Below, one piece after another: positions 1 through 17,872 of a DNA stretch of 24,494 nucleotides. Each line of letters starts with the position of its first letter. Position 1 is the stretch's first letter. The translations under genes and the position numbers were made by a program. Origin of the DNA: a virus (lineage: Duplodnaviria > Heunggongvirae > Uroviricota > Caudoviricetes); the IMG/VR virus record IMGVR_UViG_2778261179_000018, positions 1-24,494 of that record, one strand, 5' to 3'. The notes below the pieces were generated by a model. It was given only the letters and a program-made list of their open reading frames with translations, did no database searches and had not been told where the DNA came from.

Positions 1-1254
1 ATGCCAAAACTCACAGACATGCAGATCCGCGCGTGGATTAAAAGCGGCGAACGATTCGAGGGGCGGGCCGATGGCGACGGCCTATATCTGAGGTTTCGAA
101 AAGAGGATAAAACTCCTTTTTGGCGGTATCGGTACAAGCTGGTGGGGAAGGCCCGCACCATGATGATCGGTTCTTATTCCGATTTTTCACTGGCAAAAGC
201 CCGAGATATAGCGAAAGAGCTATCCGCACGGGTAGCGCTCGGGTATGACGTAGCCGCAGAGAAGCAGGAGCGCAAAGCGGAGGCAATAGCGAAGATTGAG
301 GCCGAGAAGAACGCCATACACGTTTCAGAGCTCGCAGCTGAGTATTACGCCCGCCAGATAGAAACCACTTACAAACACCCGGAGCTTTTCCGCAGCAGCC
401 TGCAGAAGAATATCGTAGCCCTGATCGGGAAGATGAAGGTAGAGGACGTTCGCCCGCGGCACATTGATAGCGTCCTACAGGATGTTTTAGAGCGCGGATC
501 TCCCACGGTAGCTAATGATGTACTTCGCATGCTCAAACGCCTGTTTGATTATGCTGTGGTGCGTGGAATGATAGAGGTTAACCCGGCGATATCCTTTGGT
601 TCCAAAGATGCAGGCGGGAAGGAGCAGGGGCGCAAACGTGCGTTAAGCCGTGATGAGCTGGTTATGTTCTTCAAGGCGCTACGCCGCGGCCGCGGAATCA
701 GTAGAGAGAATGAGCTGACGTTCAAGATTATTCTGGCGCTTGGGGTGCGTAAAATGGAGTTGTGCGCCGCCGAATGGTCGGAGTTCGACCTTGATAACGA
801 GGTGTGGCACCTCCCTGGCTCGCGGGCAAAGAATGGTGATGACATCGATATTCCGCTGCCGGCGCCAGTGATCGAATGGATTAAAGAGATTCGACTTTTC
901 GCCGGCGATAGCCGTTGGTTAATTCCGGCCAGACGCGCCAGAACAACGGCTCACGTTAGCCGGGCCACGCTGAATATGGTTATGCCGTCCGTTTTGAAAG
1001 AAATGGCTGACGTAGAGCCGTTCAGTATCCACGACCTACGGCGCACCATGCGTACGCAGATGGCGGCAATAGGTATTGACCCAGTAATAGCTGAGCGCTG
1101 CTTAAACCACAAAATACCTGGCATAGAGGGCATTTATAACCGTCACCAGTATTTTGATGAGCGTAAAGCGGCTTTGGCTCAATGGGCTGATCTGCTAGTG
1201 GCATTGGAAAGCGGTGAAGATTACAACGTAACACCGCTAAGAAAAACGAATTAA
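1..1254 (+). CDS. int: Tyrosine recombinase / phage integrase, P4-type (IntA/IntS-like)
   Basis: N-terminal arm-binding signature (MPKLTD..IRAWIKSG...DGDGLYLRF...WRYRYK) and C-terminal catalytic region (HDLRRTMRTQM ... GIYNRHQY) typical of P4-family integrases; 417 aa. Sits at window start, so the tRNA/tmRNA target is presumably just upstream and not visible. Confidence 0.9.
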   Translation: MPKLTDMQIRAWIKSGERFEGRADGDGLYLRFRKEDKTPFWRYRYKLVGKARTMMIGSYSDFSLAKARDIAKELSARVALGYDVAAEKQERKAEAIAKIEAEKNAIHVSELAAEYYARQIETTYKHPELFRSSLQKNIVALIGKMKVEDVRPRHIDSVLQDVLERGSPTVANDVLRMLKRLFDYAVVRGMIEVNPAISFGSKDAGGKEQGRKRALSRDELVMFFKALRRGRGISRENELTFKIILALGVRKMELCAAEWSEFDLDNEVWHLPGSRAKNGDDIDIPLPAPVIEWIKEIRLFAGDSRWLIPARRARTTAHVSRATLNMVMPSVLKEMADVEPFSIHDLRRTMRTQMAAIGIDPVIAERCLNHKIPGIEGIYNRHQYFDERKAALAQWADLLVALESGEDYNVTPLRKTN

Positions 1255-1346
1255 ATGGACAGGTTGAGCCTAATCCGACGGGGTGAAAAGCGGAAGCCTT
1301 ACCGCCTGGCTCAATTTTCTAAGGTATTGCGTGAAAAGGTAACGTA

Positions 1347-2306
1347 ATGACAAATGAAAGTAGCACCAATGTATGGGAAAAGAACAACATTCCCGCCCTT
1401 GAGTATTGCACATTGCCCAGAGCAGCAGAAATCCTAACCTGCAAAGTTTCCGACTTGATACACCTTGCAGAAATTGGCGCAATTGAGTTTTGCATAGCAC
1501 TCAGAGAGTTTGAAGCCTCGCTACTCCTCCCTTTTGATTGGCGAGATTCTTCTGAATGGGAAGAAAGATTTCCAGGCCTGCATCACTCCGTGCATAAATC
1601 AGCACTTAGTAGATTTAGGCCTAAGGCAAGCTTAAGTTATTCAACGGAACTTTCAGAAAAACACATAACCTACCATTATCAAAATGAAGATTCGCCAGGC
1701 CTTAGGCGACCTCTGATATTTATATCTGGACTGTGGTCATTATCAGTCACCAATGCTGAAATTTCATTTTTTCGGAAATTATCTATAAATCAAGAGGTTT
1801 CATTAACTGCTTTAGATTTTCTGCTTAAAGAAGCAGATGTGCCGTTCATAAATAATACAAGCACTGGTAGTGATGAGGTGATATTTGTATCACCTCCGAC
1901 AGAGCATTTGTATCCTGACGGTGGATTTCTTGATGAAAGTAAATTAAAGAATATAGCCACGCTGACCATTAATGATATTTTTTTAACAAAAAAGCAAATT
2001 GAAAAAATCTCCAATGGGCTAGGGGTGGAATTACCTAACTATATTAATGGTGGGGTAATTAAGCCAACAAAAGGAGTTGATGATAGCGAACAATATGCTT
2101 GCAATGTAAATCAGAATAAGGTCGGTGAATTTATTGAAATGTTAATTCGATGCGTACCAGAATTAGGTGATGAAGCGATAAACACAAGCGTAAATAATCG
2201 ATACAACATCTTGAAGGCATTCCTTGAGCAAAAACAGAGAGAGGGTAAGTTCACAGATATGAGAATGCCAAGTTCGGCGACTATAGAAAAGTACTTCAAA
2301 ATTTGA
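1347..2306 (+). CDS. Hypothetical protein, AT-rich cargo ORF; N-terminal segment looks HTH-like (TLPRAAEILTCKVSDLIHLAEIG)
   Basis: 319-aa ORF with RBS-like AAGGTAA upstream; visibly AT-rich codon usage unlike the flanking int and alpA genes; no family recognised by eye. Confidence 0.6.
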   Translation: MTNESSTNVWEKNNIPALEYCTLPRAAEILTCKVSDLIHLAEIGAIEFCIALREFEASLLLPFDWRDSSEWEERFPGLHHSVHKSALSRFRPKASLSYSTELSEKHITYHYQNEDSPGLRRPLIFISGLWSLSVTNAEISFFRKLSINQEVSLTALDFLLKEADVPFINNTSTGSDEVIFVSPPTEHLYPDGGFLDESKLKNIATLTINDIFLTKKQIEKISNGLGVELPNYINGGVIKPTKGVDDSEQYACNVNQNKVGEFIEMLIRCVPELGDEAINTSVNNRYNILKAFLEQKQREGKFTDMRMPSSATIEKYFKI

Positions 2307-2357
2307 AACGGAGAGTTTTAAATTTGCAACACTAACGACGGAATATCACCTTTAATT

Positions 2358-2396
2358 CCTGTAACGAAGCAACAACGCTCATACAGGAGTTACAGG
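2358..2396. promoter_or_regulatory. Perfect 8-bp inverted repeat CCTGTAAC / GTTACAGG immediately upstream of alpA, overlapping its RBS
   Basis: CCTGTAAC at 2358-2365 and its reverse complement GTTACAGG at 2389-2396, ending 4 bp before the alpA ATG; candidate operator or RBS-sequestering hairpin. Confidence 0.3.
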
Positions 2397-2400
2397 AAGC

Positions 2401-2604
2401 ATGTTCACAGACACTATCCCCACCAAAGGTTACATCCGCCGCTTTCGCCTAGCCAAACTGCTGGGCGTTAGCGTATCCACTATCGACCGTAAAGTGCGCA
2501 ACGGCTCACTCCCGCGCCCGGTGAAACTGGGTGATAAGATTACCGCATTTGATGCGGTGGAGATACATAACTGGCTGGCAGAATGCCGCGGGAAGGTGGC
2601 CTGA
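2401..2604 (+). CDS. alpA: AlpA-family transcriptional regulator / excisionase-like HTH protein
   Basis: 67 aa; LAKLLGVSVSTIDRKVRNGSLPRPVKLGDK..AF...EI..WL matches the AlpA/phage Xis-like HTH pattern; RBS AGGAAG upstream; int-ORF-alpA arrangement as in CP4-57-type islands. Confidence 0.85.
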   Translation: MFTDTIPTKGYIRRFRLAKLLGVSVSTIDRKVRNGSLPRPVKLGDKITAFDAVEIHNWLAECRGKVA

Positions 2605-3051: not shown

Positions 3052-3861
3052 ATGAAAATCGAAAAAAGCCGATTCAATTCGGAGGCCGCCCCTCAACCTG
3101 ACGTTAACCAGGGCGTAATTAACGGTAACGACTTTGCCGCTGTTGTCCCTGTTATTTCCGGTCAGATTGGCGGGCGCGAAACCAATATGGCGAGCGCTAG
3201 AGCACTGCATAAAGCGCTGGGCGTGGGTCGAGACTTCACCACCTGGATTAAAGGGCGCATTAGTCAGTATGGTTTTGCCGCAGGTGTAGATTACATCACC
3301 GTTGAAAATTTGAGCTCACCCGTTTCGGGGAGCGCAAAATTTCGCCAGCAAATCGAGCATGATTACCTTCTCTCGCTGAACATGGCTAAAGAAGTGGCAA
3401 TGGTTGAACGCAACGAACAGGGCCGCGCCGTCCGCCGCTATTTCATCCAGTGCGAGGAAGCGTTACAGCTGAGTGCGCCAGAAATCGCCGCGAAGTACCG
3501 CCGTCACCTCAAAGCCCGCATTGGTGCTGCCAACCTCTTTAAGCCGATGTGCGCTGCTCTGGATGCTGCTCGCGCAGAACAGGGGAAAGAGACGCAAGGC
3601 CGCCACTACAGCAACGAAAGCAACATGATCGCCCGCATCGTGCTGGGTGGCATGACCGCTAAGCAGTGGGCGCAGGTGAACGGTATAGACGGCGAACCTC
3701 GCGATAGCATGAGTGCCGGCCAACTGGAGCACCTCAGCTATCTGGAGAGCACCAACATCACGTTGATCGATATGGGTATGCAGTACAACCAGCGCAAAGC
3801 GGAATTAACCCGCCTGTCTCAGCGCTGGCTGGCTAAACGCATGGGGGTTAACGATGAATAA
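3052..3861 (+). CDS. Phage antirepressor (AntA-like N-terminal domain with KilAC-like C-terminal region)
   Basis: Motif ARALHKALGVGRDFTTWIKGRISQYGFAAGVDYI resembles the AntA/AntB antirepressor domain; 269 aa; RBS GGAG upstream. Confidence 0.7.
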   Translation: MKIEKSRFNSEAAPQPDVNQGVINGNDFAAVVPVISGQIGGRETNMASARALHKALGVGRDFTTWIKGRISQYGFAAGVDYITVENLSSPVSGSAKFRQQIEHDYLLSLNMAKEVAMVERNEQGRAVRRYFIQCEEALQLSAPEIAAKYRRHLKARIGAANLFKPMCAALDAARAEQGKETQGRHYSNESNMIARIVLGGMTAKQWAQVNGIDGEPRDSMSAGQLEHLSYLESTNITLIDMGMQYNQRKAELTRLSQRWLAKRMGVNDE

Positions 3862-4057
3862 GCCCACCAGCACGCGGACGCATCTGGCGTCATTTTATGC
3901 CGGAGATCGAGACAGCGGGAGAGCACCCTATCAGCAGAATAATTCGCTGAAAAATGAGGGGTGCGTCAGCGGGCCTAACGCGGGAAATTCTGGCGTGTTC
4001 AAATTGGCCGGATTTTATGGTTGTTTGCTGGTGGTGATCGGTAACGGTGCCGACCGC

Positions 4058-4088
4058 CAAAAGAAAAAGGGCAGGATTCTGCCCTTTG
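4058..4088 (-). terminator. Rho-independent terminator for the minus-strand RHH gene
   Basis: On the minus strand: AAGGGCAG-aatc-CTGCCCTT hairpin followed by TTTCTTTT; preceded by a second hairpin AAAGCCC-gaatca-GGGCTTT (plus coordinates 4091-4112) right after the gene stop. Confidence 0.5.
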
Positions 4089-4116
4089 GTACCAAAGCCC
4101 TGATTCGGGCTTTGAG

Positions 4117-4296
4117 TCATTCCGATTCTTTGGGCTTCTTGCGCTGCCGGCGTTTGATCTCGCCCTTTGCAGCCGTAATCAGAAATCCGGCCGTACTTTC
4201 ACCCTCTTCTTTCAGTTTCTCTATCTCTTCCAAATCATCGAGAGGGAGTCTTACCGAAAGCTGTAGGGAGCGATTGTTCTTCCTACCTGTTGCCAT
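4117..4296 (-). CDS. Small ribbon-helix-helix (CopG/Arc-like) DNA-binding protein, putative regulator
   Basis: Minus-strand ORF (track 4117..4335); start taken at MATGRKNNRSLQLSVRLPLDDLEEIEKL... with RBS AAGAGG 8 nt upstream; beta-strand then helix pattern (LSVRLP / DDLEEIEKLKEEG) typical of RHH. Confidence 0.5.
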   Translation of the reverse strand: MATGRKNNRSLQLSVRLPLDDLEEIEKLKEEGESTAGFLITAAKGEIKRRQRKKPKESE

Positions 4297-4316
4297 TACT
4301 GAAACCTCTTGCCTTA

Positions 4317-4400
4317 GGTGGTGTTCAGTATACACATCAAAATTGATAATAAAACACTTGAAGTGGTGTTCACTAGGTTATACAGTGGTGGTGTTCACCT
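4317..4400. repeat. Three direct iterons GTGGTGTTCA(C/G); third copy contains TGTTCACC
   Basis: GGTGGTGTTCAGT 4317-4329, GTGGTGTTCACT 4363-4374, GTGGTGGTGTTCACC 4386-4400, in the divergent region between the RHH gene and the rightward small-ORF/primase operon. Confidence 0.6.
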
Positions 4401-4717
4401 TATCCACAGCTAAAGCACAGGTAAGGCACAAAACGGCGAAGCCCAGAGGTGCGCCAACACCTTCCGGGCTCCTGACCACCAGCGATAGAATCAGTATCGA
4501 GGTAGCTATGTCAAATCGTATCACACCCCTGACCGGGCGGCATCGCTCAGCCCTAATTTATTCCTCAGGCGCTTTCTGGCGCTCAACCGCCACGACAAAA
4601 AGGCCAGGCCCTGCCGCCTGTCCGTCGAGGCCGCAACCGAACGTGAAGCCCGCCGTATTCTGGCGCCGCACTTCATCCTTTCTCTGGCTGCTCGCCTGCC
4701 GCTGGTGGGGGTGCGTC

Positions 4718-4897
4718 ATGCTTAAAACCTTCCAGATTGACGGGTACGCGGTTAATAAGCGCGGTAACACCGTCGGCATTCACTACACCCTGACCAGCGA
4801 CAGCCCGGATACAGCCAAATCAACCGCGCAACTACTGGCGCAGCAGGGCGGCTATCAGCACGTTCGCATTACCCGCGTTCAGGAGGTAGCAGCATGA
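4718..4897 (+). CDS. Hypothetical small protein (start uncertain)
   Basis: C-terminal part of track ORF 3854..4897; MLKTFQIDGYAVNKRGNTVGIHY... looks protein-like, whereas the upstream part of the same frame is R/W/C/P-rich and overlaps the iterons and the minus-strand RHH gene. Stop overlaps the next start. Confidence 0.4.
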   Translation: MLKTFQIDGYAVNKRGNTVGIHYTLTSDSPDTAKSTAQLLAQQGGYQHVRITRVQEVAA

Positions 4898-5157
4898 AAA
4901 TTAACACCATCTGTCGCCATCCTGCAGAGCTTGAGGCCGAGGCAATGTTATTCCGTAAACAGCCTTACCCTGACTCTTTCTCGCTGGCAGAGCGTACCGC
5001 GGAACGCATGACCCGCGCCCGCAATGGTCTGGCTCACATTATGACAGAGCTGGCACCACGCCTCGACGATGAGCAAGCGGCCATCGTGCATTGCTGGCTG
5101 GATAAAGTCCTGGCGATTGTCGATATAACCCGAATTGATGCAGAGGCCAGTTTATGA
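4894..5157 (+). CDS. Hypothetical protein
   Basis: 87 aa; strong RBS AGGAGG upstream; translationally coupled to the next ORF (ATGA overlap). Confidence 0.6.
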   Translation: MKINTICRHPAELEAEAMLFRKQPYPDSFSLAERTAERMTRARNGLAHIMTELAPRLDDEQAAIVHCWLDKVLAIVDITRIDAEASL

Positions 5158-5375
5158 GCGGAAAAATCACGATGAAAAGAGATGTTTTCGAGGTCATCAC
5201 TGATGCTGAGCATGCCATTGGCTACTCCAACCAGGCGCTGGCGGTTCTTGACCTATGGCTGGATAGCGTGGGCATTGAAGACGATACCGAAGCGAACCGT
5301 ATCGCGGCGGTTCACAGCCTTGTGTGTGAGTCTCTGACCTGGCTTAAAAAAGCAGCCGGTATTAACGAGGAATAA
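5154..5375 (+). CDS. Hypothetical protein
   Basis: 73 aa; ATGA overlap with the upstream ORF. Confidence 0.55.
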   Translation: MSGKITMKRDVFEVITDAEHAIGYSNQALAVLDLWLDSVGIEDDTEANRIAAVHSLVCESLTWLKKAAGINEE

Positions 5376-5380
5376 AAATC

Positions 5381-5602
5381 ATGGTGAAAAATAATTCTGG
5401 CTCATCTGCCAGTGGTCTCGCTCACCCTGAAATCCTCCACGGCGATAAATGGGCAGATAAAAGCGGTGTACGGGTAATTATCGAAAGCTGCCGGTTCAAC
5501 AGAGTTAAATTTTACCGCGAAGGCTATCAGTCGCCGTGTATTTACCCCGAGCAGCGGTTTATCAAAGAGTTTTCACTAATACAGGGGGCCGTCCATGAAT
5601 AA
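5381..5602 (+). CDS. Hypothetical protein
   Basis: 73 aa; RBS GAGGAA 9 nt upstream; overlaps the next start by 8 bp. Confidence 0.45.
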   Translation: MVKNNSGSSASGLAHPEILHGDKWADKSGVRVIIESCRFNRVKFYREGYQSPCIYPEQRFIKEFSLIQGAVHE

Positions 5603-6167
5603 ACAATCTTATCCGGAAGCTGGCCCCGATGGCGTTATTACCGGCTCCGGGCTGGTGAGCTTTCTTTCGGTAACGGAAAGCCTTAGCCGCGGTGATTATG
5701 ACCGCAACCCGGAGGAAGGCATGGGTCTTGCCTGTGCCGCGCTGGATGGCGTGGCCCTGACGTGGTTCGCGGCAGCGCCAGAACAACATGCTGCTCTCTG
5801 GCGGTGGATTGTTGCGGCGGCATTTGTCGAGGAACAGGTGAAAAATAACGGAAATATCGACGTGATGTGCGAAGATGGCCGCAAAGTTAAGGCAGCTGTC
5901 TATGCCGGGAAATGCGGCGCTATAACCGTTTACCCGGTAGCGGAGCGTGTTGCTCTGGCAAGCCAGGTTGAGGGGTACGCTTTACAGAAATACGGTACTA
6001 CAACGGGTATGGATCTGGCTATCCAGCATTACCAGACGATGCTCGAATGGCGTGATGGCATTTACTGCCTGTCAGATCATGGCCGGGATATTCTTTCCGA
6101 TCTGCACGACAACCTTATCGCCACCATTCACGCCAGTGGTGTTCCTGCGATGCCAACGGAGCACTAA
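5595..6167 (+). CDS. Hypothetical protein
   Basis: 190 aa; RBS AGGGGG upstream; sits directly before the primase in the same operon. Confidence 0.6.
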   Translation: MNKQSYPEAGPDGVITGSGLVSFLSVTESLSRGDYDRNPEEGMGLACAALDGVALTWFAAAPEQHAALWRWIVAAAFVEEQVKNNGNIDVMCEDGRKVKAAVYAGKCGAITVYPVAERVALASQVEGYALQKYGTTTGMDLAIQHYQTMLEWRDGIYCLSDHGRDILSDLHDNLIATIHASGVPAMPTEH

Positions 6168-6171
6168 GCGT

Positions 6172-8856
6172 ATGAAGCGTGCAATTGAGCTTATCCACGA
6201 AGTGAAGCGCCGAACTGCCGGAAGCTGGGAAAGTGTGCTGCCGCAGTGCGGGGTGACGGTTCCGCCGAAAGGTCGTCACGGACCCTGCGCCATCTGCGGC
6301 GGTTCTGACCGCTTTCACTTTATTGACGACCACGGCGGCGGCGAGTGGCATTGTCGCCAGTGTGACGAACCGAATCATGGCGACGGTCTGGATCTCATCG
6401 CCAGAGCGCACGGTATTACCATAACCGCAGCGGCGCAGAAGGTGGCCTCTGTGTTGGGTGTAGATGCCCGGACACCGGAACCGAAGTCGGCCAGAGAGAA
6501 GCCTCAAACGGATATCGCCGGGAAAGTCGCCGGGATGGCCGCTAAAGCTGCGTCCGGACAGTCAGCCTATCTCACATCAAAGGGGCTTCAGTGCCCCTTC
6601 CCGTTGATGCCTGACGGGTCGCTGCTGATGGTGCTGAAAAACGGCGCTGGCGCTGTCACCGGCGCACAGGGGATTAAGCCAGACGGCAATAAGCGGCTGG
6701 TGGCCGGAACGGTGAAGAAAGGCTCCTTCTGTGTGGTTAATTCCGTTGAATCGCCGGAAAAGGTGGTTATCGCTGAAGGACTGGCAACCACGCTCTCAGT
6801 TAACCTGATGCGGCCCGATGCGCTGGCTGTCGTTGCCGTTGATGCCGGGAACCTGCTGCCCGTAGCGGAGGTTATGCGCCGGCGATACCCTGAGGCGCGG
6901 ATCATTATCGCTGCCGATAACGACATAAAGCCGGGAGAGCCAAACACAGGCAAAGAGGCTGCGGATAAAGCTGCTAAAGCCGTCTCTGGCTGGGTGGCTT
7001 TACCGCCAACAGTGAAAAAGGCCGACTGGAACGACTACCACCAGCAGCATGGCCTGGAAGCCGCTACAACGGCGTTTAAGAATTCGATGTATCAACCGCA
7101 GGAGCCTGAAGTGTCCGCGAGACTGCAAGTGATCAACGGAGGGAAGAAAGGCGCATCAAAACCTGAATCTCTGCGATCTCATGTCGAAAGCCGTGCTGAC
7201 GGTATTTTTTGGGTTGAGCCAAAATCAGACAAAGATACCGGGGAAATAACTACCCGTGAAAGCTGGCTGTGTTCTGCTCTGGAGGTCATAGGTACTGGCA
7301 TAGATGACAGTAAAACCCGGTATCTGATCCTGCGCTGGCGCCCATTCGGTTCGAAGGGGGATACTGTCCAGGCAATACCATTTGCTGATATCGGTGAACG
7401 CGAAGGCTGGCGAACGCTCAAGGCTGGTGGGGTGAACGTCACAACCAAAAGTGGTTTACGTGCAACGTTGGCCGACTGGCTGCAGAGCTGTGCCAATGGT
7501 GAGGTATGGCGCATTGCGCATGCTACGGGCTGGCAGTGTGGCGCCTACATCATGCCTGATGGCGAGATCATTGGTACTCCAGATCAACCGGTGCTGTTTA
7601 ACGGACGAAGTTCTGCCGCATCCGGTTATACCACCAGCGGTACTGTTGAGAGCTGGCGAGAGTGCGTTGGACGTCTGGCCTTTGGCAACTACTCGATGAT
7701 GACTGGCGTGGCCGCAGCGCTGGCAGCTCCTTTGATTGGCCTTGCCGGCGCTGATGGTTTTGGTATCCATCTCTATGAGCAGTCGAGCGCGGGTAAGACC
7801 ACCACTGCCAATGTGGCCTCCAGTCTCTATGGCAATCCGGATGTGCTACGCCTCACCTGGTACGGTACTGCGCTGGGGCTGGCGAACGAAGCCGCCGCAC
7901 ATAACGATGCGCTGATGCCGCTTGACGAAATTGGCCAGGGTGCTGACCCGGTGGAGGTCTACAAATCGGCATACGCACTGTTTAACGGCACGGGTAAGCT
8001 GCAGGGAGCGAAGGAAGGCGGAAACCGTGACCTGAAGCGCTGGCGTACTGTGGCCATCAGTACCGGTGAGATGGATCTGGAAACCTTCATCGCGAGCGCC
8101 GGTCGCAAGGCTAAAGCAGGCCAGCTGGTTCGCCTGCTGAATATCCCGATGCGCCGGGCTGTTCGTTTCCATGAACATGCCAACGGCAAACACCATGCCG
8201 ATGCCCTCAAAGATGCATACCAGCATCACCACGGAGTGGCTGGGCGTGAGTGGGTGAAGTGGCTGGCGGACCACCAGCACGAGGCTGTAAGCGCTGTCAG
8301 GGCAGCGGAAGAGCGCTGGCGTAGCCTGATCCCGTCGGATTACGGGGAGCAGGTCCATCGTGTTGGCGCCCGGTTTGCCATTCTGGAGGCCGCACTATTG
8401 TTAGGTAATGTGATCACCGGCTGGGATGAGCAGACGTGTCGGGATGCCATTCAGTACAGCTATAACGCCTGGCTGCGCGAGTTTGGTACCGGCAATAAAG
8501 AACACCAGCAAATTATCGAGCAGACAGAGGCATTCCTGAACGCCTACGGGATGAGCCGTTTTGCACCGTTCCCATATGACCCGACTAGCCTCCCTATCTC
8601 CAACATGGCGGGATACCGGCAGAAAGGCGGGCACGAGACTGACCCGATAGTGTTCTACACCTTCCCGGCAGCCTTCGAAGGGGAGATCGCCCGCGGCTTT
8701 AACTCCCGTCAGTTTGCGGAGGTATTGAAGAAAGCTGGCATGCTGACGCCACCGACTTCAGGCCGGGGATTCCAGAGAAAGTCGCCACGCATTGATGGGC
8801 GACAGATTCGGGTTTATGTCCTGCAGTATCTGCCGGACGACGACCAGCCAGAGTAA
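6172..8856 (+). CDS. Primase-helicase (zinc-binding domain + Toprim + P-loop NTPase; P4 alpha / DUF927-type)
   Basis: Start at MKRAIELIHEV (track ORF begins earlier at 5947 but overlaps the upstream gene). Zinc finger CAICGGSDRFHF...HCRQCD; Toprim acidic motifs VVIAEGLATT and IIIAADNDIKPGE; P-loop-like YEQSSAGKTTT; about 894 aa. Confidence 0.85.
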   Translation: MKRAIELIHEVKRRTAGSWESVLPQCGVTVPPKGRHGPCAICGGSDRFHFIDDHGGGEWHCRQCDEPNHGDGLDLIARAHGITITAAAQKVASVLGVDARTPEPKSAREKPQTDIAGKVAGMAAKAASGQSAYLTSKGLQCPFPLMPDGSLLMVLKNGAGAVTGAQGIKPDGNKRLVAGTVKKGSFCVVNSVESPEKVVIAEGLATTLSVNLMRPDALAVVAVDAGNLLPVAEVMRRRYPEARIIIAADNDIKPGEPNTGKEAADKAAKAVSGWVALPPTVKKADWNDYHQQHGLEAATTAFKNSMYQPQEPEVSARLQVINGGKKGASKPESLRSHVESRADGIFWVEPKSDKDTGEITTRESWLCSALEVIGTGIDDSKTRYLILRWRPFGSKGDTVQAIPFADIGEREGWRTLKAGGVNVTTKSGLRATLADWLQSCANGEVWRIAHATGWQCGAYIMPDGEIIGTPDQPVLFNGRSSAASGYTTSGTVESWRECVGRLAFGNYSMMTGVAAALAAPLIGLAGADGFGIHLYEQSSAGKTTTANVASSLYGNPDVLRLTWYGTALGLANEAAAHNDALMPLDEIGQGADPVEVYKSAYALFNGTGKLQGAKEGGNRDLKRWRTVAISTGEMDLETFIASAGRKAKAGQLVRLLNIPMRRAVRFHEHANGKHHADALKDAYQHHHGVAGREWVKWLADHQHEAVSAVRAAEERWRSLIPSDYGEQVHRVGARFAILEAALLLGNVITGWDEQTCRDAIQYSYNAWLREFGTGNKEHQQIIEQTEAFLNAYGMSRFAPFPYDPTSLPISNMAGYRQKGGHETDPIVFYTFPAAFEGEIARGFNSRQFAEVLKKAGMLTPPTSGRGFQRKSPRIDGRQIRVYVLQYLPDDDQPE

Positions 8857-9253: not shown

Positions 9254-9536
9254 TTCGCTGTTGTTACGCGGGGAGAGCGTACCTGATGCCTAGACAAGCC
9301 ATCGCCGAATCACCGGGCTGGCATCAACCTACACATGCAACCTGTAAGTACGACTAAAGCCGTAAAATGGTATGGTCGACAATGCGATTTTTTTTGGCGT
9401 GATGTGCTTTACGGCTAGCAAAAAACGATTATTGGTTAACATTATTGTGTTTTATGTTTACATAAAATGGTTTATGATTTACATGTGTTCGAAAGGGATG
9501 ACTCTTTTTGAAGTCATCAATTTTTCCGGAAAAGGT

Positions 9537-10643
9537 ATGAAAGTGTTAGTTGACGATATTGTTGCTCTTATAGAAGCGTCTTTAGATGCAAACTATTCTG
9601 AAGTACGTAGTGTGAGCAATCGAATTGCCAAAGCTATAAGTACCGATAATATGGATGGTGCGAAAAAAATAAAATCTGTTTTACGACGTAAGGGGGTGCC
9701 GTTACGTAGTTCAGGTTACAGCGATAGCCTACCCGTTGATCCAAAGTCAAGAATGCCCTTGGTAGAAGAGCATCAATGGCCTGTCACGCCTCTTTTCTTA
9801 GAGGAGAGCGAACAGGATACCTTTAACACTTTTGTTGAAAGTGTAAAGCAACAAGATAAGCTGATTGCGAATGGACTAGTTGGTAAACTAGGTTTGCTGC
9901 TTTCTGGGCCGCCAGGAACAGGTAAGACATTGATTGCAGGACATATAGCGTCACAACTTAATAGACCACTTTATGTGGTGAGATTAGATTCTGTAATTTC
10001 TTCACTTCTTGGTGATACAGCAAAGAACCTAAGACAGATCTTTGATTTTGTACCGTCAAAAAATGGTGTTTTATTTCTCGACGAAGTTGATGCCGTTGCA
10101 AAAGTAAGAGATGACCGCCATGAAATAGGAGAACTGAAAAGAGTAGTAAATACATTAATTCAAGGTTTAGACTCTCTTGATGATAGTTCTATAGTTATAG
10201 CTGCGACCAATCACTCTGAATTACTTGATCCTGCTATCTGGAGACGTTTTCCTTTTAAAATACGTCTCGATTTCCCTTCCCAGGAATTACGAGAGTTCTT
10301 ATGGAGTCATTTTTTATTCGGTGATAAAGGCCCGATTAAGGAGTTAAAGGCGTTAGGTATTGTTTCAAATGGACTAAGTGGTGCTGATATTGAAACTATA
10401 GCTATTTCGGCGAGGAGACAATCAGTATTATCGAATACACCTTTGAATATTCCTTCTGTATTGTTATCAATTATGGACAGTGAATACAATAATTCAGTGA
10501 TGCCTAACACTAAGGAACCAAGTTTACATACCAAGAAAAGATTGATAAATCTTTTATACGAAGCAAAATCTTTCACACAGACAGAAATTGCCAGCCTATT
10601 AGGTTTGAGTAGGCAGACAATTTCAAGCCATTTAAAGGAGTAA
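9537..10643 (+). CDS. AAA+ ATPase (classic clade) with C-terminal HTH; IetA-like candidate
   Basis: Walker A GPPGTGKT, Walker B VLFLDEVD, sensor-1 AATN, arginine-finger region DPAIWRRF; C-terminal HTH-like TQTEIASLLGLSRQTISSHLKE. Start ambiguous (ATGs at 9483, 9498, 9537); the track start 9372 is rejected. Strongly AT-rich. Confidence 0.8.
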   Translation: MKVLVDDIVALIEASLDANYSEVRSVSNRIAKAISTDNMDGAKKIKSVLRRKGVPLRSSGYSDSLPVDPKSRMPLVEEHQWPVTPLFLEESEQDTFNTFVESVKQQDKLIANGLVGKLGLLLSGPPGTGKTLIAGHIASQLNRPLYVVRLDSVISSLLGDTAKNLRQIFDFVPSKNGVLFLDEVDAVAKVRDDRHEIGELKRVVNTLIQGLDSLDDSSIVIAATNHSELLDPAIWRRFPFKIRLDFPSQELREFLWSHFLFGDKGPIKELKALGIVSNGLSGADIETIAISARRQSVLSNTPLNIPSVLLSIMDSEYNNSVMPNTKEPSLHTKKRLINLLYEAKSFTQTEIASLLGLSRQTISSHLKE

Positions 10644-10647
10644 TGCT

Positions 10648-12876
10648 ATGGCAGATGGTAATAACCGTAAGAAAGTGTTGAACCCTCTACTTTCGTATTT
10701 GGAGGACCCTGCGCCAAAAGCGATTAATGGTGGAGGCAAGAATGCTGACGATATTCAGTGGGCTAGGTTAGATATTCAAAAAGAGACTTTAAGTAAAAGT
10801 CTTAAAAGTATCAGTGAAAACAAATCTATTATAGCTCACGCTGGTAAAATCCATCTGCTAATTAAAATGTTTGATGATTCATTAGCACCTTCATGGACCC
10901 CGACGGATTTATTTGAAACAAATCCTTTTACTAGACTAGTTTCTCCTGCATACAACGGATTTTTAGTTGAAACAAGCAAAGAAAAGATACCTGAAATTAT
11001 CAAGAAGATAAAAACTGCTAGCAATGATAGAATTAAAGTAGATGTGTCACGACTTGAAAGTATAAAGGCATTTGATAGGAGCGCAGTTTTAAGAGGGAAA
11101 AGCTTATCTGACTTTGATTTTAGTAATGATGGAAACCAGTTTAATATTTGGATTTTACCATTTCATGATCCAAATGCGCGCTTTTCGGTTGCTGAGGAGT
11201 TAGAGGATCTTGTTGATGAGGATGTTATTACGTTTGGTGAATCCATTTATGACAATGTTTTTGATGGAGAAAAAAGAACCTCTGGTACTCGTTCCTTCAA
11301 AAGAAAGTTAAAGCAATATCTATCGCATGGACATTTAACATTTACAGCAGTAGTAAAAAATAATAATGACTTCATAAAGTTAATTGGATCCGGAGCTATA
11401 TATAGAATCGAACCGGTTAAGAAGGTGACAACTAGGTCATTGCCTCCTGGTGAAGGAGAAGAGCCTTCACCAAAACTGATTAATAAAGAAACCGCTCCCG
11501 TTGTAGTTATAGTTGATGGTGGTTGTTCATCGAAGTCTTACTTGCCATTGAATGTGATTAACATTAATCCGCTTATTGATAGCTATCATGCAGATTTAAA
11601 ACATGGCAATTGCGTAACTTCATTGGTTTGCCAGGGCGGAGCTTGGAATAATAAATTACACTTACCACAATTAGAGTGTAAATTTGTTAGCGTACAAGCT
11701 ATAAGTAAGAGAGATGTAAGCCCTCAACCAACCACCGAGCAGTTCATTAATTATCTAAGAGTTGTGGCGGAGAAAACTAAAAATGTTTCTTCTGTTTGGA
11801 ATCTATCATTTAATGAGGCTTCGCCATCCGATAGTGTTGATGAAATTAGTAGGTTGGGACATGAAATAAGTCTTCTGGCTCGCGAATTTAATATATTACC
11901 CGTGATTTCAATTGGTAATGTTAACTCTGACAACCCAACTACCTTATGTCCTCCTGCTGATTGTGAAGCGGCATTGACTGTATCAGGTAGAAAAGCATCT
12001 ATTTTAGGTGAGATCTCTTCACATTGTCCAAAAAGTTTGCGTGGACCTGCTCCTGGTGGAATGAAGAAGCCTGAGCTTTCTTGGTTTTCTAAATTGAGGA
12101 TGTTAGGTGGAGATGTTAAGACAGGTACAAGCTTTAGTGCGCCCTTGATATCAAGCATTGCGGCTCACACGTTCAAAAATCTAAAAGAGCCAACTCCAGA
12201 TTTAGTTAAGGCATTACTGATAAACAAAGCTGAAGGTATTGAGCATGATCTTGGCCTAGGTTGGGGGTCTCCATGGAGGAAAGGGAGTTCTATGCCATGG
12301 ATGTGTGAAGATGGAACTGTGACATTAGCTTGGAATTCTAAATTAAAAGCTGGTAGTGCATATTATTGGAATAATATTCCTATCCCTCCTGAAATGATTG
12401 TAGATGGAAAGATTAAAGGTAGTATTATTCTTACTGCCATCTTAAAGCCAGTAGTTTCTGAATTAGCAGGGGATAACTATTTTTCAACAAGATTACAATG
12501 TGCACTACAGCATGTAAATAATGCAGGCAAGGCCAAAAATCTTCTTGGTACTATGAAAGAGTCAACCGAAAAGGAAATTGATTCCAGAAGTGAATTAGCT
12601 AAATGGAGCCCGATTAGACATCATGGTAAAAGCTTTAAAGGGGTTGCCGTTGATAATAACAAAGTAAGGCTTTATGCGCGTATTTTTACAAGAGATCTTT
12701 TCCAATTTAATTATGCGAGTCATCATGAGTTAGATGAACAAGATGTGGCATTTGTTTTGACCTTTAAAAGTCCTAGCGACGATCCATCAATTTACGACTC
12801 AATGAAGCAACAACTTGGTAACAAGGTCAAAGCTGCGATAATAGAACAGGATATTATTCTGGATAGTGATGTTTGA
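10648..12876 (+). CDS. S8 family subtilisin-like serine peptidase; IetS-like candidate
   Basis: 742 aa; RBS AAGGAG 8 nt upstream; 4-bp gap after the ATPase gene. Candidate catalytic motifs in subtilase order: Asp VVVIVDGGCS, His HGNCVTSLV, Ser GTSFSAPLISSIAAH. AT-rich like its partner. Confidence 0.8.
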   Translation: MADGNNRKKVLNPLLSYLEDPAPKAINGGGKNADDIQWARLDIQKETLSKSLKSISENKSIIAHAGKIHLLIKMFDDSLAPSWTPTDLFETNPFTRLVSPAYNGFLVETSKEKIPEIIKKIKTASNDRIKVDVSRLESIKAFDRSAVLRGKSLSDFDFSNDGNQFNIWILPFHDPNARFSVAEELEDLVDEDVITFGESIYDNVFDGEKRTSGTRSFKRKLKQYLSHGHLTFTAVVKNNNDFIKLIGSGAIYRIEPVKKVTTRSLPPGEGEEPSPKLINKETAPVVVIVDGGCSSKSYLPLNVININPLIDSYHADLKHGNCVTSLVCQGGAWNNKLHLPQLECKFVSVQAISKRDVSPQPTTEQFINYLRVVAEKTKNVSSVWNLSFNEASPSDSVDEISRLGHEISLLAREFNILPVISIGNVNSDNPTTLCPPADCEAALTVSGRKASILGEISSHCPKSLRGPAPGGMKKPELSWFSKLRMLGGDVKTGTSFSAPLISSIAAHTFKNLKEPTPDLVKALLINKAEGIEHDLGLGWGSPWRKGSSMPWMCEDGTVTLAWNSKLKAGSAYYWNNIPIPPEMIVDGKIKGSIILTAILKPVVSELAGDNYFSTRLQCALQHVNNAGKAKNLLGTMKESTEKEIDSRSELAKWSPIRHHGKSFKGVAVDNNKVRLYARIFTRDLFQFNYASHHELDEQDVAFVLTFKSPSDDPSIYDSMKQQLGNKVKAAIIEQDIILDSDV

Positions 12877-13352: not shown

Positions 13353-13538
13353 ATGTCCAGACAAAACGTAAACGTAAAACCGGTATTACTCAGTCACGAG
13401 CAGATAAAGGCGCTGAGTGACATTCAGGAGCAGCACCGCAAAACATCCAGTATCGGCGTTGCGCCAACTATCCATGAGATTGCACGCGGTCTGATGGATA
13501 AAGCGCTGGCGTCTCTCTCCGACGGAGTGAAAGTATGA
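13353..13538 (+). CDS. Small phage protein preceding the tape measure gene
   Basis: 61 aa; RBS GGGGGTGG upstream; ATGA overlap with the downstream gene. Confidence 0.5.
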   Translation: MSRQNVNVKPVLLSHEQIKALSDIQEQHRKTSSIGVAPTIHEIARGLMDKALASLSDGVKV

Positions 13539-15535
13539 ATGCTGAAACTCTGAAGGACTTTTTAATTAGCCTGGGCTTCAAAGTAGATGACGCCGGCGCC
13601 AGAAAATTTGATGCCATCGTTACCGGCGCGACACTCAAGGCGATCGAGCTCGGCACCAAAGTAGAGCTGGCCGCTGCGTCTGTGGTGGCCTTTACCGCGA
13701 AAGTCGCCAGCGGTCTCGATAACTTGTACTGGGCCTCTCAGCGCACTGGCGCAACGGTGCAGGGCATCAAGCAGATCGGCTTTGCCGTCAGCCAGATGGG
13801 CGGCAGTGTGGATGCCGCCCGCGGCTCTCTCGAAAGCCTGGCTCAGTTCATCCGTACCAGCTCCGGAGCCGAGGGTTTCCTGAATCGCCTTGGCGTTCAG
13901 ACCCGCGATGCCAGCGGAAACATGCGGGACATGACGACGATCTTTACCGGCGTCGGCCAGCGTCTCAGCAGCATGCCGTACTATCGCGCTAATCAGTACG
14001 CACAGATGCTCGGCATGGATGAAAACACGCTGCTGGCTATGCGTCGAGGCATTGGCGAGTACATGGGCCAGTATAACGCCATGAAAAAGGCTATCGGGTT
14101 TAATCCTGATCAGGCCGCCGCGGCATCTAACCGCTTTATGACCTCGTTGCGGTCGTTCGGCGAAATGGCCGGCATGGCGCGGGACAAAATCGGCTCTAAC
14201 CTCGCTGGTGGTCTAGCCGGTGCCATTGATAACCTTCGCCGCCAGATCCTTGATAACTTCCCGAAAATAGAGCGCACCATTAACGCAGTGGTGAAGGGTA
14301 TTCTTTGGATGGGGGAGGCCGTCGGACGGGTGGTCTATCGTCTGATACAGGCCGCGGGTGATATCCGGGACTGGTGGAAAGGGCTTGATGAAGACTCCAG
14401 GAAACTCATCGGCACGCTGGGTGGAATGCTGGTGGCCTGGCGATTGCTGAATGCCGCTATGCTCGCCTCTCCGATTACCTGGGTTCTGGCGCTTGCTGGT
14501 GCGCTTCTGCTGCTCTATGACGATTACAAGACGTGGAAAGAAGGCGGTAAAAGCCTCATTGACTGGGATAAGTGGGAGCCGGCGATAAACTTTGCGCTGA
14601 CTGCCATTGAAAAACTATGGACTGGTGTGAAGCGTCTTAAAGACGAGTTGATTAAACTTTTCGGTATCGACCCTAAAACATGGTCGATTAAGTTCGAATT
14701 CGACAGTCTGAAGAAGCAGTTCAATGAGCTGAGCAAGATGCTGGATACCATAGGCAAGCTTCTCAATGCGATTGATGAAGGTCGCTGGTCAGACGCGGCA
14801 GCTTACGCCAGACAACTGCTGAATCAGGGCGGCGAGCCGACACCATCAAACGCGGTGACAGACAGCGCCAATAGCGCTGCGGACTGGATTCAGAATAAAA
14901 CCGGGTTTGACCCCCGCAGTATTGGTCAAGCCGTTACTGGCTGGTTTGGTGGTGAAGCTACTCAATACGGGCAGTCTGTTAAACGACCTCAGGCCTCTAA
15001 AGCTGGCGCTCAGCTGCTGGGTTGGATGGCTCCGATGATGGGTAAACTGGAGGCGTTGTATAACCTCCCTGCGGGCCTGCTCCGTAGTGTTGCTCTCGCT
15101 GAGTCAAACGGCAATCAGTTTGCTGTGTCTGGCGCTGGCGCACAGGGAATGTTTCAGTTTATGCCGGGTACTGCCCGCGATATGGGCCTGCGCGGCAACG
15201 ATGTGTTTAACCCGATGAAAGCGGCGGAAGCGGCGGCGCGGTATCTCTCGATGCTCCTGCAGAAGAACGGCGGCGATCTGAATAAAACTCTGGCCTCCTA
15301 TAACTGGGGCATCGGTAATGTGCAGAAGTACGGCATGGCGCTGATGCCCGGGGAGACCCGTCAATATATCCCGAAAGTGCTCAGCAATATGCCGGGCAGC
15401 GGGGCAACGCTGAACCAGGAAACCAATATCCATATTCACGGCGTCAATAATCCGCGAGAGGCGGCCAATCTGGTGGTTGAAAGGCAGAACACTGTAAACA
15501 ATCGGGCAACCCAGGATCTGGGGAGGAGTAACTGA
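13535..15535 (+). CDS. Phage tail tape-measure-like protein with C-terminal lytic transglycosylase (SLT) domain
   Basis: 666 aa; coiled-coil-like N-terminal region, hydrophobic segment LIGTLGGMLVAWRLLNAAMLASPITWVLALAGALLLL, and SLT motif block AESNGNQFAVSGAGAQGMFQFMPGTARDMG...YNWG. Confidence 0.7.
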   Translation: MNAETLKDFLISLGFKVDDAGARKFDAIVTGATLKAIELGTKVELAAASVVAFTAKVASGLDNLYWASQRTGATVQGIKQIGFAVSQMGGSVDAARGSLESLAQFIRTSSGAEGFLNRLGVQTRDASGNMRDMTTIFTGVGQRLSSMPYYRANQYAQMLGMDENTLLAMRRGIGEYMGQYNAMKKAIGFNPDQAAAASNRFMTSLRSFGEMAGMARDKIGSNLAGGLAGAIDNLRRQILDNFPKIERTINAVVKGILWMGEAVGRVVYRLIQAAGDIRDWWKGLDEDSRKLIGTLGGMLVAWRLLNAAMLASPITWVLALAGALLLLYDDYKTWKEGGKSLIDWDKWEPAINFALTAIEKLWTGVKRLKDELIKLFGIDPKTWSIKFEFDSLKKQFNELSKMLDTIGKLLNAIDEGRWSDAAAYARQLLNQGGEPTPSNAVTDSANSAADWIQNKTGFDPRSIGQAVTGWFGGEATQYGQSVKRPQASKAGAQLLGWMAPMMGKLEALYNLPAGLLRSVALAESNGNQFAVSGAGAQGMFQFMPGTARDMGLRGNDVFNPMKAAEAAARYLSMLLQKNGGDLNKTLASYNWGIGNVQKYGMALMPGETRQYIPKVLSNMPGSGATLNQETNIHIHGVNNPREAANLVVERQNTVNNRATQDLGRSN

Positions 15536-16122
15536 TGGATATTCTTTCAACGCTGTTTCAGCAAAATAGCCGCAGAATCGGGTTAATGGTGCCAAGCGTT
15601 GTTGTTTCTGAAAAACACACTGACATGCTGGAGATTACCGAGCATCCCGTTGAACGCCCCACATCTGCTGGGGCTGGTTTTATTGCTGATCATGCGTATC
15701 GCCGACCCTCTGAAGTGGTAATGGAAATTGGCTTTGCTGGTGGTGGTTCACTGCTGGATTTCTACGACACCCGAAATATTGGACTGTCGACGCCGCTCAA
15801 CAGCATGGGCCCGAAAGAGGTTTATGCGGAGCTGCTGAATATGCAGCAAGGTAAGCAGTTGCTCGACGTCACCACGGGCAAGCGGTTGTACAAAAATATG
15901 CTGATCCGCTCTCTGGAGGTTACCACTGACCGAACTACTGAAAATGTATTATCGGCCACAGTGACACTTCGCGAAGTCATTATCACTCAGACAAAAAGCA
16001 TCAAGGTGGCTGATAAAGCCGATATGAAATATGGCGTAAACACCTCAGCCGTAATTAACACCGGAACTAAAACGCCAGTACCGAAAAATGAGTCCATTCT
16101 TTCCAGCGTGTTTGGAGGTTAA
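15535..16122 (+). CDS. Phage tail/baseplate structural protein (unassigned)
   Basis: 195 aa; TGATG-coupled to the upstream gene; RBS GGAG; position within the tail operon. Confidence 0.55.
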   Translation: MDILSTLFQQNSRRIGLMVPSVVVSEKHTDMLEITEHPVERPTSAGAGFIADHAYRRPSEVVMEIGFAGGGSLLDFYDTRNIGLSTPLNSMGPKEVYAELLNMQQGKQLLDVTTGKRLYKNMLIRSLEVTTDRTTENVLSATVTLREVIITQTKSIKVADKADMKYGVNTSAVINTGTKTPVPKNESILSSVFGG

Positions 16123-16428
16123 ATGTCCGTATCGGAAATTCCGTTAGCGCCCGATAGTCAGAGTTTTAATATCACCCTAGCTGGCGTTGATTATCAAATG
16201 CGCGTGGTCTGGCGCGGGGTATGTTGGTTCCTCGACCTGATGGACAGTACCGGTACGCTGATGATTGGCGGTATTCCGCTGATCACCGGCACTAATCTGC
16301 TGGCGCAGTACCATTATCTCGGCCTCGGGTTCTCGCTTTATGTGGTCTGTGATGACCCGGCCAGCGAAAACCCAACGCAGTTTGATCTTGGCATTAAAAG
16401 CCACCTGTACGCGAAAACTGAGGATTAA
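16123..16428 (+). CDS. Phage tail/baseplate protein (small, unassigned)
   Basis: 101 aa; RBS GGAGG; immediately follows the previous stop. Confidence 0.5.
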   Translation: MSVSEIPLAPDSQSFNITLAGVDYQMRVVWRGVCWFLDLMDSTGTLMIGGIPLITGTNLLAQYHYLGLGFSLYVVCDDPASENPTQFDLGIKSHLYAKTED

Positions 16429-16430
16429 CG

Positions 16431-17513
16431 ATGCCAAGAAACTGGAACCGACATTTTGAACTACAGCTCATCGACGATAACGGCGAGGGTATCAGCCTTA
16501 GCGACTTTAAAGTTGCCTTTAGCGTAGAGCGAAACGATAACCGATGGCCAGCTATGGCGCTGGTCAAAATCTATAACCTTGCCCCCGAAACCCAGAACCG
16601 TATCATGCGCCGTGAATACAGCAAGATAACCCTGATAGCGGGTTATGACGGGCTGGATAGTGCTTCCTCTGATACCGTAAGCGCCAGCGAGGTAGGGAAG
16701 GTGCGCTACGTAACAAATGACACCATAAATAGCCCTGATGGCTCAAATTACGGTGTCATTTTCAGCGGTGATATTGCTTTCACTGTGGAAGGCAAAGACA
16801 ACATTACCGATCGGTACGTCCGTATACAGGCATTTGACGGCGACAAGGCCTTTATGGAAGCGCAGATCAGCACCTCGCTGGCCGCCGGCTATACGCTGAG
16901 CGATGAGTACAATTTGCTCATGAAGCACCTTGAACCGTTCGGTATCCGTAAGGGGGTTGAGCCGGTTTTCCCTGGTACAGTCTATCCGCGAGCTGCGTCA
17001 TACCACGGCCTTGTGAACAACTATCTTTCCCGACTGGCTGATGACCTTCGTGCGACATGGCAATTCAGCTTTGGAAAGGTTGACTTCATTCAGCAGGATG
17101 TGGCGAAACACCGTGCAATCGTCCTGAACGCTGATACCGGGCTGGTGGGCATGCCGCAGCAGACCATTGGCGGAGGGGTGAATGTTACGTGTCTTATTAA
17201 TTCCTTCATTCAGTTACACGGGCTTATTCAGTTGGATCAGGCGTCAGTGTATCGTGCACAGTTGAGCAATGAGCAGGTTTTACAGGCTGGTGGTATTGCG
17301 CCGGAACAGGAAATTAACGGCAACCTTGTCACAAGTGGTCTGGCGCAGAGAGAGAATCCGGCGAGTGTTGCGACAGACGGTGTTTATATCGTCCGCTACC
17401 TCTCATATCGAGGCGATACGCGCGGGCAGGACTGGTACATGGATTTAGCTTGCGAAGCCCGAGGAAATGCTGACGTTCCCTCATCGTCTTACTTACTCAA
17501 ACAGGATTCTTAA
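16431..17513 (+). CDS. Putative baseplate hub protein (gp27 / late-control-D-like)
   Basis: 360 aa; RBS GAGGA; lies between the tape measure and the spike gene, the usual hub position. Assignment is by context and size, not by a recognised motif. Confidence 0.5.
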   Translation: MPRNWNRHFELQLIDDNGEGISLSDFKVAFSVERNDNRWPAMALVKIYNLAPETQNRIMRREYSKITLIAGYDGLDSASSDTVSASEVGKVRYVTNDTINSPDGSNYGVIFSGDIAFTVEGKDNITDRYVRIQAFDGDKAFMEAQISTSLAAGYTLSDEYNLLMKHLEPFGIRKGVEPVFPGTVYPRAASYHGLVNNYLSRLADDLRATWQFSFGKVDFIQQDVAKHRAIVLNADTGLVGMPQQTIGGGVNVTCLINSFIQLHGLIQLDQASVYRAQLSNEQVLQAGGIAPEQEINGNLVTSGLAQRENPASVATDGVYIVRYLSYRGDTRGQDWYMDLACEARGNADVPSSSYLLKQDS

Positions 17514-17863: not shown

Positions 17864-17872
17864 GGGGGAAGC

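Follow-up and report, generated by a model that had tools for sequence, protein, structure and literature searches.

What does the gene that sits between the integrase gene and alpA of a phage satellite do? We take up this question for a stretch of 24,494 nucleotides (nt) from a virus of the Caudoviricetes (IMG/VR record IMGVR_UViG_2778261179_000018, positions 1 to 24,494), which we call the window. By its gene plan, the element in the window is a satellite of the phage-inducible chromosomal island (PICI) type, and the gene in question, labelled X here, is the open reading frame (ORF) at 1347..2306 on the + strand, between int and alpA. An earlier sequence-only reading had described it as an AT-rich orphan at a position that often carries variable cargo, and had proposed a defence protein or a regulator. 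We will argue that X is one allele of a polymorphic cassette slot, which lies behind a conserved structured RNA, and that it may serve the satellite as an accessory factor in its conflicts. The interval is laid out as follows.

1..1254, + strand: tyrosine integrase (int), 417 aa, with Pfam matches to Arm-DNA-bind_3 (1.6e-20), Phage_integrase (2.8e-17) and Phage_int_M (5.7e-16)
1263..1329, + strand: int-alpA RNA, Rfam RF02996 (cmscan 53.3 bits, gathering score 35.8)
1347..2306, + strand: X, ATG start, 319 aa (ORF listing)
2401..2604, + strand: alpA, 67 aa, AlpA-family regulator/excisionase (Phage_AlpA, PF05930, 5.3e-08)

A conserved RNA ahead of X

The RNA that precedes X matches RF02996 over its full length (model positions 1-71). 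Its fold is a three-way junction, and a U-rich tract comes after the closing stem; 17 nt separate its end from the start codon of X, and the int-X spacer is conserved far better than the flanking genes. The same RNA stands upstream of the X homologue in all eight of the related loci scanned for it (L001, L005, L008-L012 and L014; loci are cited by our L numbers), and it was found in 203 of 5426 complete E. coli genomes. Scanning IMG/VR with the invariant core of RF02996 gave 87 loci (L019-L105), all of them confirmed by a covariance model that we built ourselves. In nearly all of the 87, an ORF of 100-390 aa begins 20-65 nt past the RNA core; the X family makes up about ten of those ORFs, and all others are spread over more than 30 unrelated clusters. 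Pfam searches with 10 of these other occupants returned nothing usable. In the loci that have both the RNA and alpA, the distance between the two is 707-1156 nt (34 of 34), and the gap is never empty.

Covariation over 89 matches is strong and supports the base pairs of the RNA: 96.8% of cells are paired, whereas slid controls reach 37-52%. Changes on both sides of a pair were counted in 231 cells; shuffles gave about 70 and slid controls 13-35. The closing stem has such changes in all nine of its pairs. The inner hairpins are invariant, which is partly because the search pattern demanded it.

Rfam files RF02996 as 'Gene; sRNA' (small RNA), and we found no paper assigning it a function. Here, a full-length member lies between int and alpA, and in the window, as at about 100 other loci, it stands directly before a protein-coding gene that differs by locus. 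This suggests that RF02996 is the leader or terminator of a cassette slot instead of, or besides, a free-standing small RNA.

The RF02996 core is also frequent in GC-rich elements of non-enterobacterial origin (among L019-L105), where it precedes more than 30 unrelated, uncharacterised genes, HNH/AP2-like and Bro/ANT-like proteins among their products. Some of these elements, such as L075, have an ORF of about 100 aa between the integrase and the RNA.

X and its replacements in related islands

In the window, X lies directly behind RF02996 and before alpA, co-directional with int. The same int-X-alpA order is kept next to yicC in islands of the Citrobacter type (L001-L004), of Salmonella (L005-L007) and of E. 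coli (L008, L009 and L107), and also in Enterobacter (L010), in Klebsiella next to der (L014) and in Scandinavium at a tRNA gene (L011); a scan of a genome collection with a further alignment (A2) gave 3 loci. These islands are not equally close: the window integrase is 94% identical to that of L014, 62-65% identical to those of the yicC islands and 26% identical to that of L011. The alpA gene is 75-96% identical across related islands, and the AlpA of L011 is 33% identical to that of the window. X itself has an identity of only 27-50% in related islands, which is far below that of int (62-65%), alpA (77-93% in this comparison), orf151, antA and the primase, and it is AT-rich in every one of them (GC content 0.35-0.45, against 0.51-0.58 in the flanks).

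Other genes can take its place. Among the IMG/VR loci, X fills the slot in L019, L028, L029, L044, L060, L061, L073 and L082, and the 11 IMG/VR islands with close Int and AlpA carry X (8), a second family that we call Y (2) or an unrelated protein of 213 aa (1, in L033). Family Y, in a form of 293 aa, is also found in the X slot of some E. coli yicC islands, and it is AT-rich as well:

L106, 3595-4476; L108, 3579-4460; also in L059, L066 and L071: family Y, 293-393 aa, AT-rich

Family Y has no Pfam or PADLOC match. Its N-terminus (WLTLxEAAxRL...DCLQLALDGHITIS) and its C-terminus ('...LLDEYFSSANKSFKS') resemble X in pattern only, and hhalign aligned X with only the N-terminal 45 residues of Y, in register, at E 0.01-0.03 and a probability below 5%. 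On these comparisons, Y is unrelated or at most very distantly related to X. At one and the same E. coli locus, the 203 RNA-positive genomes include 77 with X of type c, 34 with X of type b and 24 with a Y-like gene.

As unrelated genes replace X behind the same RNA, X is one allele of a polymorphic cassette slot, and on present sequence comparisons it is the dominant allele family of that slot rather than free-floating cargo. The idea of a variable cargo position thus stands insofar as Y and the 213-aa protein of L033 can occupy it, and is to be amended insofar as X is found in the same slot of most related islands; the alleles of X themselves also diverge strongly from one another. The opposite outcome, in which X homologues would be a conserved core component of such islands, also holds in part: the content of the interval varies, yet X homologues are common there. 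We found no earlier description of an int-alpA cassette slot in the literature consulted for it.

The downstream boundary and the alpA leader

The slot is closed by structure too. Two hairpins lie between the end of X and alpA:

2299..2325, + strand: AT-rich hairpin overlapping the stop codon of X (from the fold)
2353..2398 (approximately), + strand: alpA leader hairpin (CCTGTAAC...AGGAGTTACAGG), which sequesters the Shine-Dalgarno sequence of alpA

Every X allele has its own hairpin or inverted repeat directly 3' of it, which differs according to the type of C-terminal module; such elements are present in the window and in L009, L010, L011, L019, L028, L044, L061, L073, L082 and L107. The region 2296-2410 folds with a z score of -4.9, and the arms of the alpA leader co-vary between islands (CCCGTAAC/GTTACGGG and CTCGTAAC/GTTACGAG) through G.U intermediates. 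Rfam holds no family for this leader hairpin. Since conserved structured flanks are found on both sides, the cassette can be delimited: it starts where RF02996 ends and extends as far as the stop-codon hairpin.

We had also considered that the C-terminal module of X might bind the repeats just 3' of the gene; this is unsupported, and these sequences look like cassette-boundary hairpins. In some loci, such as L107, the hairpin behind X resembles an intrinsic terminator. L107, from E. coli ECONIH4, also has an ISSpu7-family transposase gene (4627-6237) inserted between X and alpA, with neither of them disrupted.

X is a real and fast-changing gene

X is a real, selected protein-coding gene. The sequence-only reading was right about a 319-aa AT-rich ORF between int and alpA, as the coordinates, the Pfam matches of the flanking genes and the base composition all agree. 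X has a GC content of 0.382 and a GC content at third codon positions (GC3) of 0.331, against 0.53-0.57 and 0.58-0.63, respectively, in int, alpA, orf151, antA and the primase gene; along the DNA, this appears as a dip to 0.37-0.41 across 1501-2500, with about 0.54 on either side. By our estimate from base composition, the chance of an open frame of 319 codons is about 3e-10. A Shine-Dalgarno sequence (AAGG) lies 8 nt 5' of the start codon, and no sigma-70 promoter was predicted directly 5' of X. A further element may bear on its translation:

1325..1349, + strand: small hairpin whose loop holds the Shine-Dalgarno sequence of X, the ATG lying within the 3' strand of the stem

This hairpin was predicted by RNAalifold from 7 islands (with one compensatory pair) and by a single-sequence fold, which is weak evidence, and the model would allow that it may control the translation of X.

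In a comparison with the 72%-identical homologue of L014, the ratio of nonsynonymous to synonymous substitution rates (dN/dS) is 0.15 for X, 0.05 for int and 0.06 for alpA. The nonsynonymous rate alone is 0.154 for X, against 0.030 for int and 0.020 for alpA, so that X changes 5-7 times faster. By these rates, X is under purifying selection yet fast-changing. The identical X protein is present in at least 49 blocks of the assembly collection.

Relatives of X in the databases

X is not an orphan. A word-indexed search returned 42 protein clusters of 291-339 aa, except for one partial of 225 aa, and those with a name are all 'hypothetical' and all from Enterobacterales. An exhaustive profile search extended this to 554 clusters (at 50% identity) at E<=1e-3, 251 of them at E<=1e-10; nearly all are 260-350 aa long, with E values down to 1e-209 and a profile coverage of 1-319. 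The distant members that we looked up come from Klebsiella, Yersinia, Providencia, Enterobacter and Lelliottia, and the named ones are again 'hypothetical'. The family, as delineated by these searches, is thus large, uncharacterised and confined to Enterobacterales as far as seen. X belongs to it by full-length similarity, by the N-terminal motif IPxLEYCxLxRAAxLLxCxxxDLLH and by the GLW motif.

Part of the family coincides with phrog_7144 (PHROGs v4, no assigned function), which is matched by 13 of 58 family members with a best E of 7e-22. The profile of phrog_7144 has 313 positions, which is near the length of X, and the protein of the window matches it by its N-terminal domain only (residues 17-73, E 7.8e-05). 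The orphan label is therefore to be dropped on account of the 42 close clusters, the 554 reached by profile and phrog_7144, and the 554 homologous clusters of similar length and the dN/dS of 0.15 speak against a non-functional remnant.

The collections of named domains are silent on it. Pfam gave nothing at E<=1 for X, and nothing for sets of 30 and of 58 relatives; NCBIfam gave no match for X, and a sequence-profile search of the PDB gave only a chance-level match. Searching plasmids with tblastn returned weak N-terminal matches only, in Klebsiella records.

Two candidates from known elements were set aside. YfjH of the K-12 element CP4-57 is like X in size (318 aa) and in its place between the integrase gene and alpA (intA/alpA), but it lies on the opposite strand, RF02996 was not found in CP4-57, and hhalign gives a probability of 1.4% for homology. 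EcCIMP1_002, which also sits in an int-alpA gap, is a different and much smaller protein.

Domain architecture of X

The AlphaFold2 model of X has a predicted local distance difference test score (pLDDT) of 81 and a predicted template modelling score (pTM) of 0.68, and, taken together with our X-family alignment A1, divides the protein into the following parts:

1371..1490, + strand (residues 9-48): N-terminal winged-helix-like domain, the best-conserved part, with R25, A26, C32 and D36 invariant in A1
1491..2015, + strand (residues 49-223): central beta-rich domain, hypervariable, with only W130, G128, D164 and D210 conserved
+ strand (residues 224-255): disordered linker with a conserved LPNYINGGV motif
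2112..2303, + strand (residues 256-318): C-terminal four-helix module of the '...SATIEKYFKI' type, dN/dS 0.056

Over the whole protein, the sole invariants of A1 are R25, A26, C32, D36, W130, D164 and G226. The N-terminal domain aligns in register with AlpA, which lends weak support to a helix-turn-helix (HTH), and the model suggests that it resembles an AlpA/MerR-like winged helix; the Pfam models of the AlpA, HTH_17 and MerR type (PF05930, PF12728 and PF13411) had no match at E<=1 in X or in the 30 and 58 relatives. The central domain has no recognisable fold. The C-terminal module is the most constrained part of X, as its dN/dS indicates, and at least three versions of it exist: the window has '...SATIEKYFKI', and the others are '...D/TWxxWL/RxK' and '...LRSAANGK'. 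A DNA match of 75% identity begins at 2115 in the comparison with an E. coli allele that is otherwise 36% identical, and on such alignments the C-terminal module is swapped as a unit among family members.

The sequence-only reading had seen an HTH-like stretch at the N-terminus and an unrecognisable C-terminal domain. In the model, the N-terminal part is a winged-helix-like domain and the C-terminal part a four-helix module.

What X may do for the satellite

The lack of conserved catalytic residues, together with a putative winged helix, a hypervariable centre and a modular C-terminus, leads us to infer that X acts by binding rather than by catalysis. We tentatively favour the view that X serves the satellite as an accessory factor of interference or immunity in the conflict between phage, satellite and host, and not a core gene of the satellite life cycle. 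In such a scheme, the N-terminal domain would anchor X on a conserved nucleic-acid target, the variable central domain would recognise a partner that evolves rapidly, for which some component of a helper phage or of a competing one is the most plausible candidate, and the C-terminal module would couple this recognition to an output. RF02996, judging from its position, would be a cis-acting leader, or in view of its U-rich tail a leaky terminator, that sets the expression of the slot gene. We favour this view because the composition of X stays foreign to the core genes of the island, because sister islands replace X with other genes, because EcCIMP1, a functional PICI, has only a tiny int-alpA ORF, about 10% as large as UvrB (PMC11773190), and because the ends of PICIs are reported to hold immune genes, immune systems being placed at their 5' or 3' ends in a statement credited to earlier work (PMC11364771).

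Several observations weigh against this interference reading. X had no match in PADLOC-DB v2 at E<=10, and neither the E. coli X alleles nor family Y had one at E<=0.001; the search with defence models does work, since IetA and IetS of the same window match PADLOC strongly, and this recognisable defence cargo lies after the primase gene and not in the X slot. A tblastn search of 50,697 phage records with X found no match. Homology searches tie X to no phenotype. The cis-regulatory role of RF02996 is read from its position, Rfam files it as a small RNA, and its U-tract could be a simple terminator of the integrase gene. Finally, a slot that is never empty and of which X is the commonest occupant also fits a regulator that is obligatory and differs in specificity from type to type.

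The same search with X also revealed no homology to the tail assembly inhibition (Tai) proteins of PICIs and phages, one of which is encoded by phage phi80, the presence of phi80 among those 50,697 records being unconfirmed; the PICI Tai genes that were first tested adjoin pri, not int (PMC11364771).

The obligatory regulator takes its most definite form in the main rival of the interference reading, which we regard as possible, if somewhat doubtful: X would be a helper-sensing regulator of alpA like Stl of the Staphylococcus aureus pathogenicity islands (SaPIs), with a winged helix that binds a conserved site near alpA or in the control region of the island and so silences alpA, a centre that binds a helper-phage protein by which the repression is lifted, and alleles that correspond to different helpers. 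X resembles Stl in lying next to int, in joining a putative N-terminal HTH-type domain to a divergent remainder, and in sharing its position with differing proteins. In favour of this reading, X is directly upstream of alpA, its conserved domain is of a DNA-binding type and the rest is hypervariable, it has no conserved enzymatic motif, and the X allele and the sequence just downstream change together. The slot, never empty in loci that have both the RNA and alpA, can also take unrelated occupants, much as Stl proteins vary from one SaPI to another. Stl is all-helical, whereas X is beta-rich. Moreover, X is co-directional with int and alpA and not divergently transcribed, the conserved sequences around alpA, with their G.U intermediates, have the behaviour of RNA hairpins and not of operators for a protein, and the lasting AT-richness of X is unlike that of the island core genes. 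The tiny ORF in the int-alpA gap of EcCIMP1 (PMC11773190) also speaks against a regulator of this kind, and Gram-negative PICIs are described as controlled, through activation, by AlpA without such a repressor (PMC10111431).

It is unlikely, in our estimation, that X is an accessory transcription factor whose targets lie on the host chromosome or in other mobile elements and which takes no direct part in phage conflict. Its winged-helix and helical modules without a catalytic motif would suit such a factor, its AT-rich, horizontally acquired character suits an accessory gene, and PICIs do carry regulators that act on the host, such as the PerC-like gene of EcCIMP1 (PMC11773190). However, alleles as diverse as those seen at one locus, and a central domain that diverges so fast, are more typical of conflict interfaces than of host regulators.

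We consider it quite improbable that X is an accessory of integration or excision, that is, a directionality or architectural protein working with Int through a Xis/AlpA-like winged helix. X does lie within the 'integration zone' between int and alpA (PMC10111431), and its N-terminal domain is in register with AlpA; but this domain is conserved across integrases that are 26% identical and across the sites yicC, der and tRNA, the role is already filled by AlpA, and unrelated genes occupy the slot in sister islands that share the same Int. Lastly, the notion that X is a relic without function or a frame left open by chance in AT-rich DNA, for which the missing domain annotation and the missing sigma-70 promoter directly upstream could speak, can practically be discounted in view of 554 clusters of similar length, a dN/dS of 0.15 (0.056 in the C-terminal module), confident AlphaFold2 models and the exact protein in at least 49 blocks.

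The X slot can also be compared with what PICIs are known to carry. Their accessory 'immune' regions (PMC11364771) are like the X slot in that an AT-rich single gene lies near the int end and the content varies between sister islands; the X slot differs from them in that it has no defence-model match, that one protein family with a winged-helix-like N-terminus dominates it, and that it is always filled. A conserved structured RNA such as the one before the X slot was not found described for PICI hotspots in the literature consulted. The Bro-N/KilA-N/ANT network offers a further parallel, as its members are satellite-encoded and join a conserved DNA-binding-type N-terminal domain to swapped C-terminal modules. 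X differs from this network in having no Pfam match to Bro-N, KilA-N, ANT or Rha, in itself or in 87 relatives, and in lying in the integration zone and not in the Bro zone; the neighbouring ORF at 3052-3861 carries AntA.

The island that carries X

The window follows the gene plan of Gram-negative PICIs, with unidirectional int, alpA and pri, and with Bro, replication and late zones; the published zones are integration, Bro, replication and late (PMC10111431). The order is int, X, alpA, orf151, AntA, small ORFs, primase, a fragment of a single-stranded DNA-binding protein (SSB) gene, IetAS and tail genes, and beyond alpA the features are as follows.

3052-3861: AntA gene (Pfam AntA)
3854-4897, + strand: ORF of 347 aa, which is one gene in L016 and several small genes in L017 and L018
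5947-8856: Zn-ribbon/Toprim/DUF927 primase
9372-10643, + strand: IetA, AAA ATPase (PADLOC 3.5e-105)
10648-12876, + strand: IetS, subtilase (PADLOC 5e-70)
13535-18616, + strand: tail-gene block (Dit-like, baseplate hub, gpV-like spike, 666-aa SLT protein)
19155-19613, + strand: SocA/Panacea-domain antitoxin-like gene
20569-21384, + strand: IS3-family transposase (rve, HTH_21)

The translation of the 347-aa ORF looks to be of low complexity and is probably not a genuine single protein. The IetA/IetS pair is AT-rich (GC content 0.36-0.39). Copies of the island with an identical X lie downstream of der, and in one of them, L018, a PP2C phosphatase and a Ser/Thr kinase stand in place of IetAS, which makes the region after the primase gene a site where cargo is swapped in and out; an accessory region adjoining pri has been published for PICIs (PMC11364771). 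In the window and in L018 alike, the tail block comes after the cargo, and the 666-aa SLT-domain protein matches a minor-tail-protein model below threshold. This block may be a late zone made up of genes captured from a helper, such as elongated PICIs are described to have (PMC10111431), or else what is left of a neighbouring prophage.

Some of the related yicC islands carry RNAs of another kind: isrK and C4 antisense RNA were matched in L005 (11568-11755), L008 (8381-8608) and L009 (7894-8095), the last of which also has a c4-a1b1 target, and they adjoin icd-like or ash-family genes. They represent an RNA immunity of the P4/P1 type, for which the window has no such Rfam match.

What the slot means for satellites and their phages

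The islands in question are common in E. coli, Salmonella, Klebsiella, Citrobacter, Enterobacter and Yersinia, and they also move defence systems such as IetAS from place to place. For RF02996, the present results provide a concrete context, namely that of a putative leader of a cassette slot with defined boundaries. A more speculative scheme, which we regard as rather doubtful, goes further and takes RF02996 and the slot gene together as an RNA-gated specificity cassette, the occupants of which would sense particular helper or rival phages and then either activate the satellite by way of alpA or block these phages, by means of a fold that has no solved relative. If true, such a cassette would explain both an orphan Rfam motif and the choice of helpers by the island. 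A gene that is always present in its slot, highly polymorphic and of unrecognised fold, behind a conserved RNA, is in any case a good candidate for a determinant of specificity or immunity between satellites and phages.

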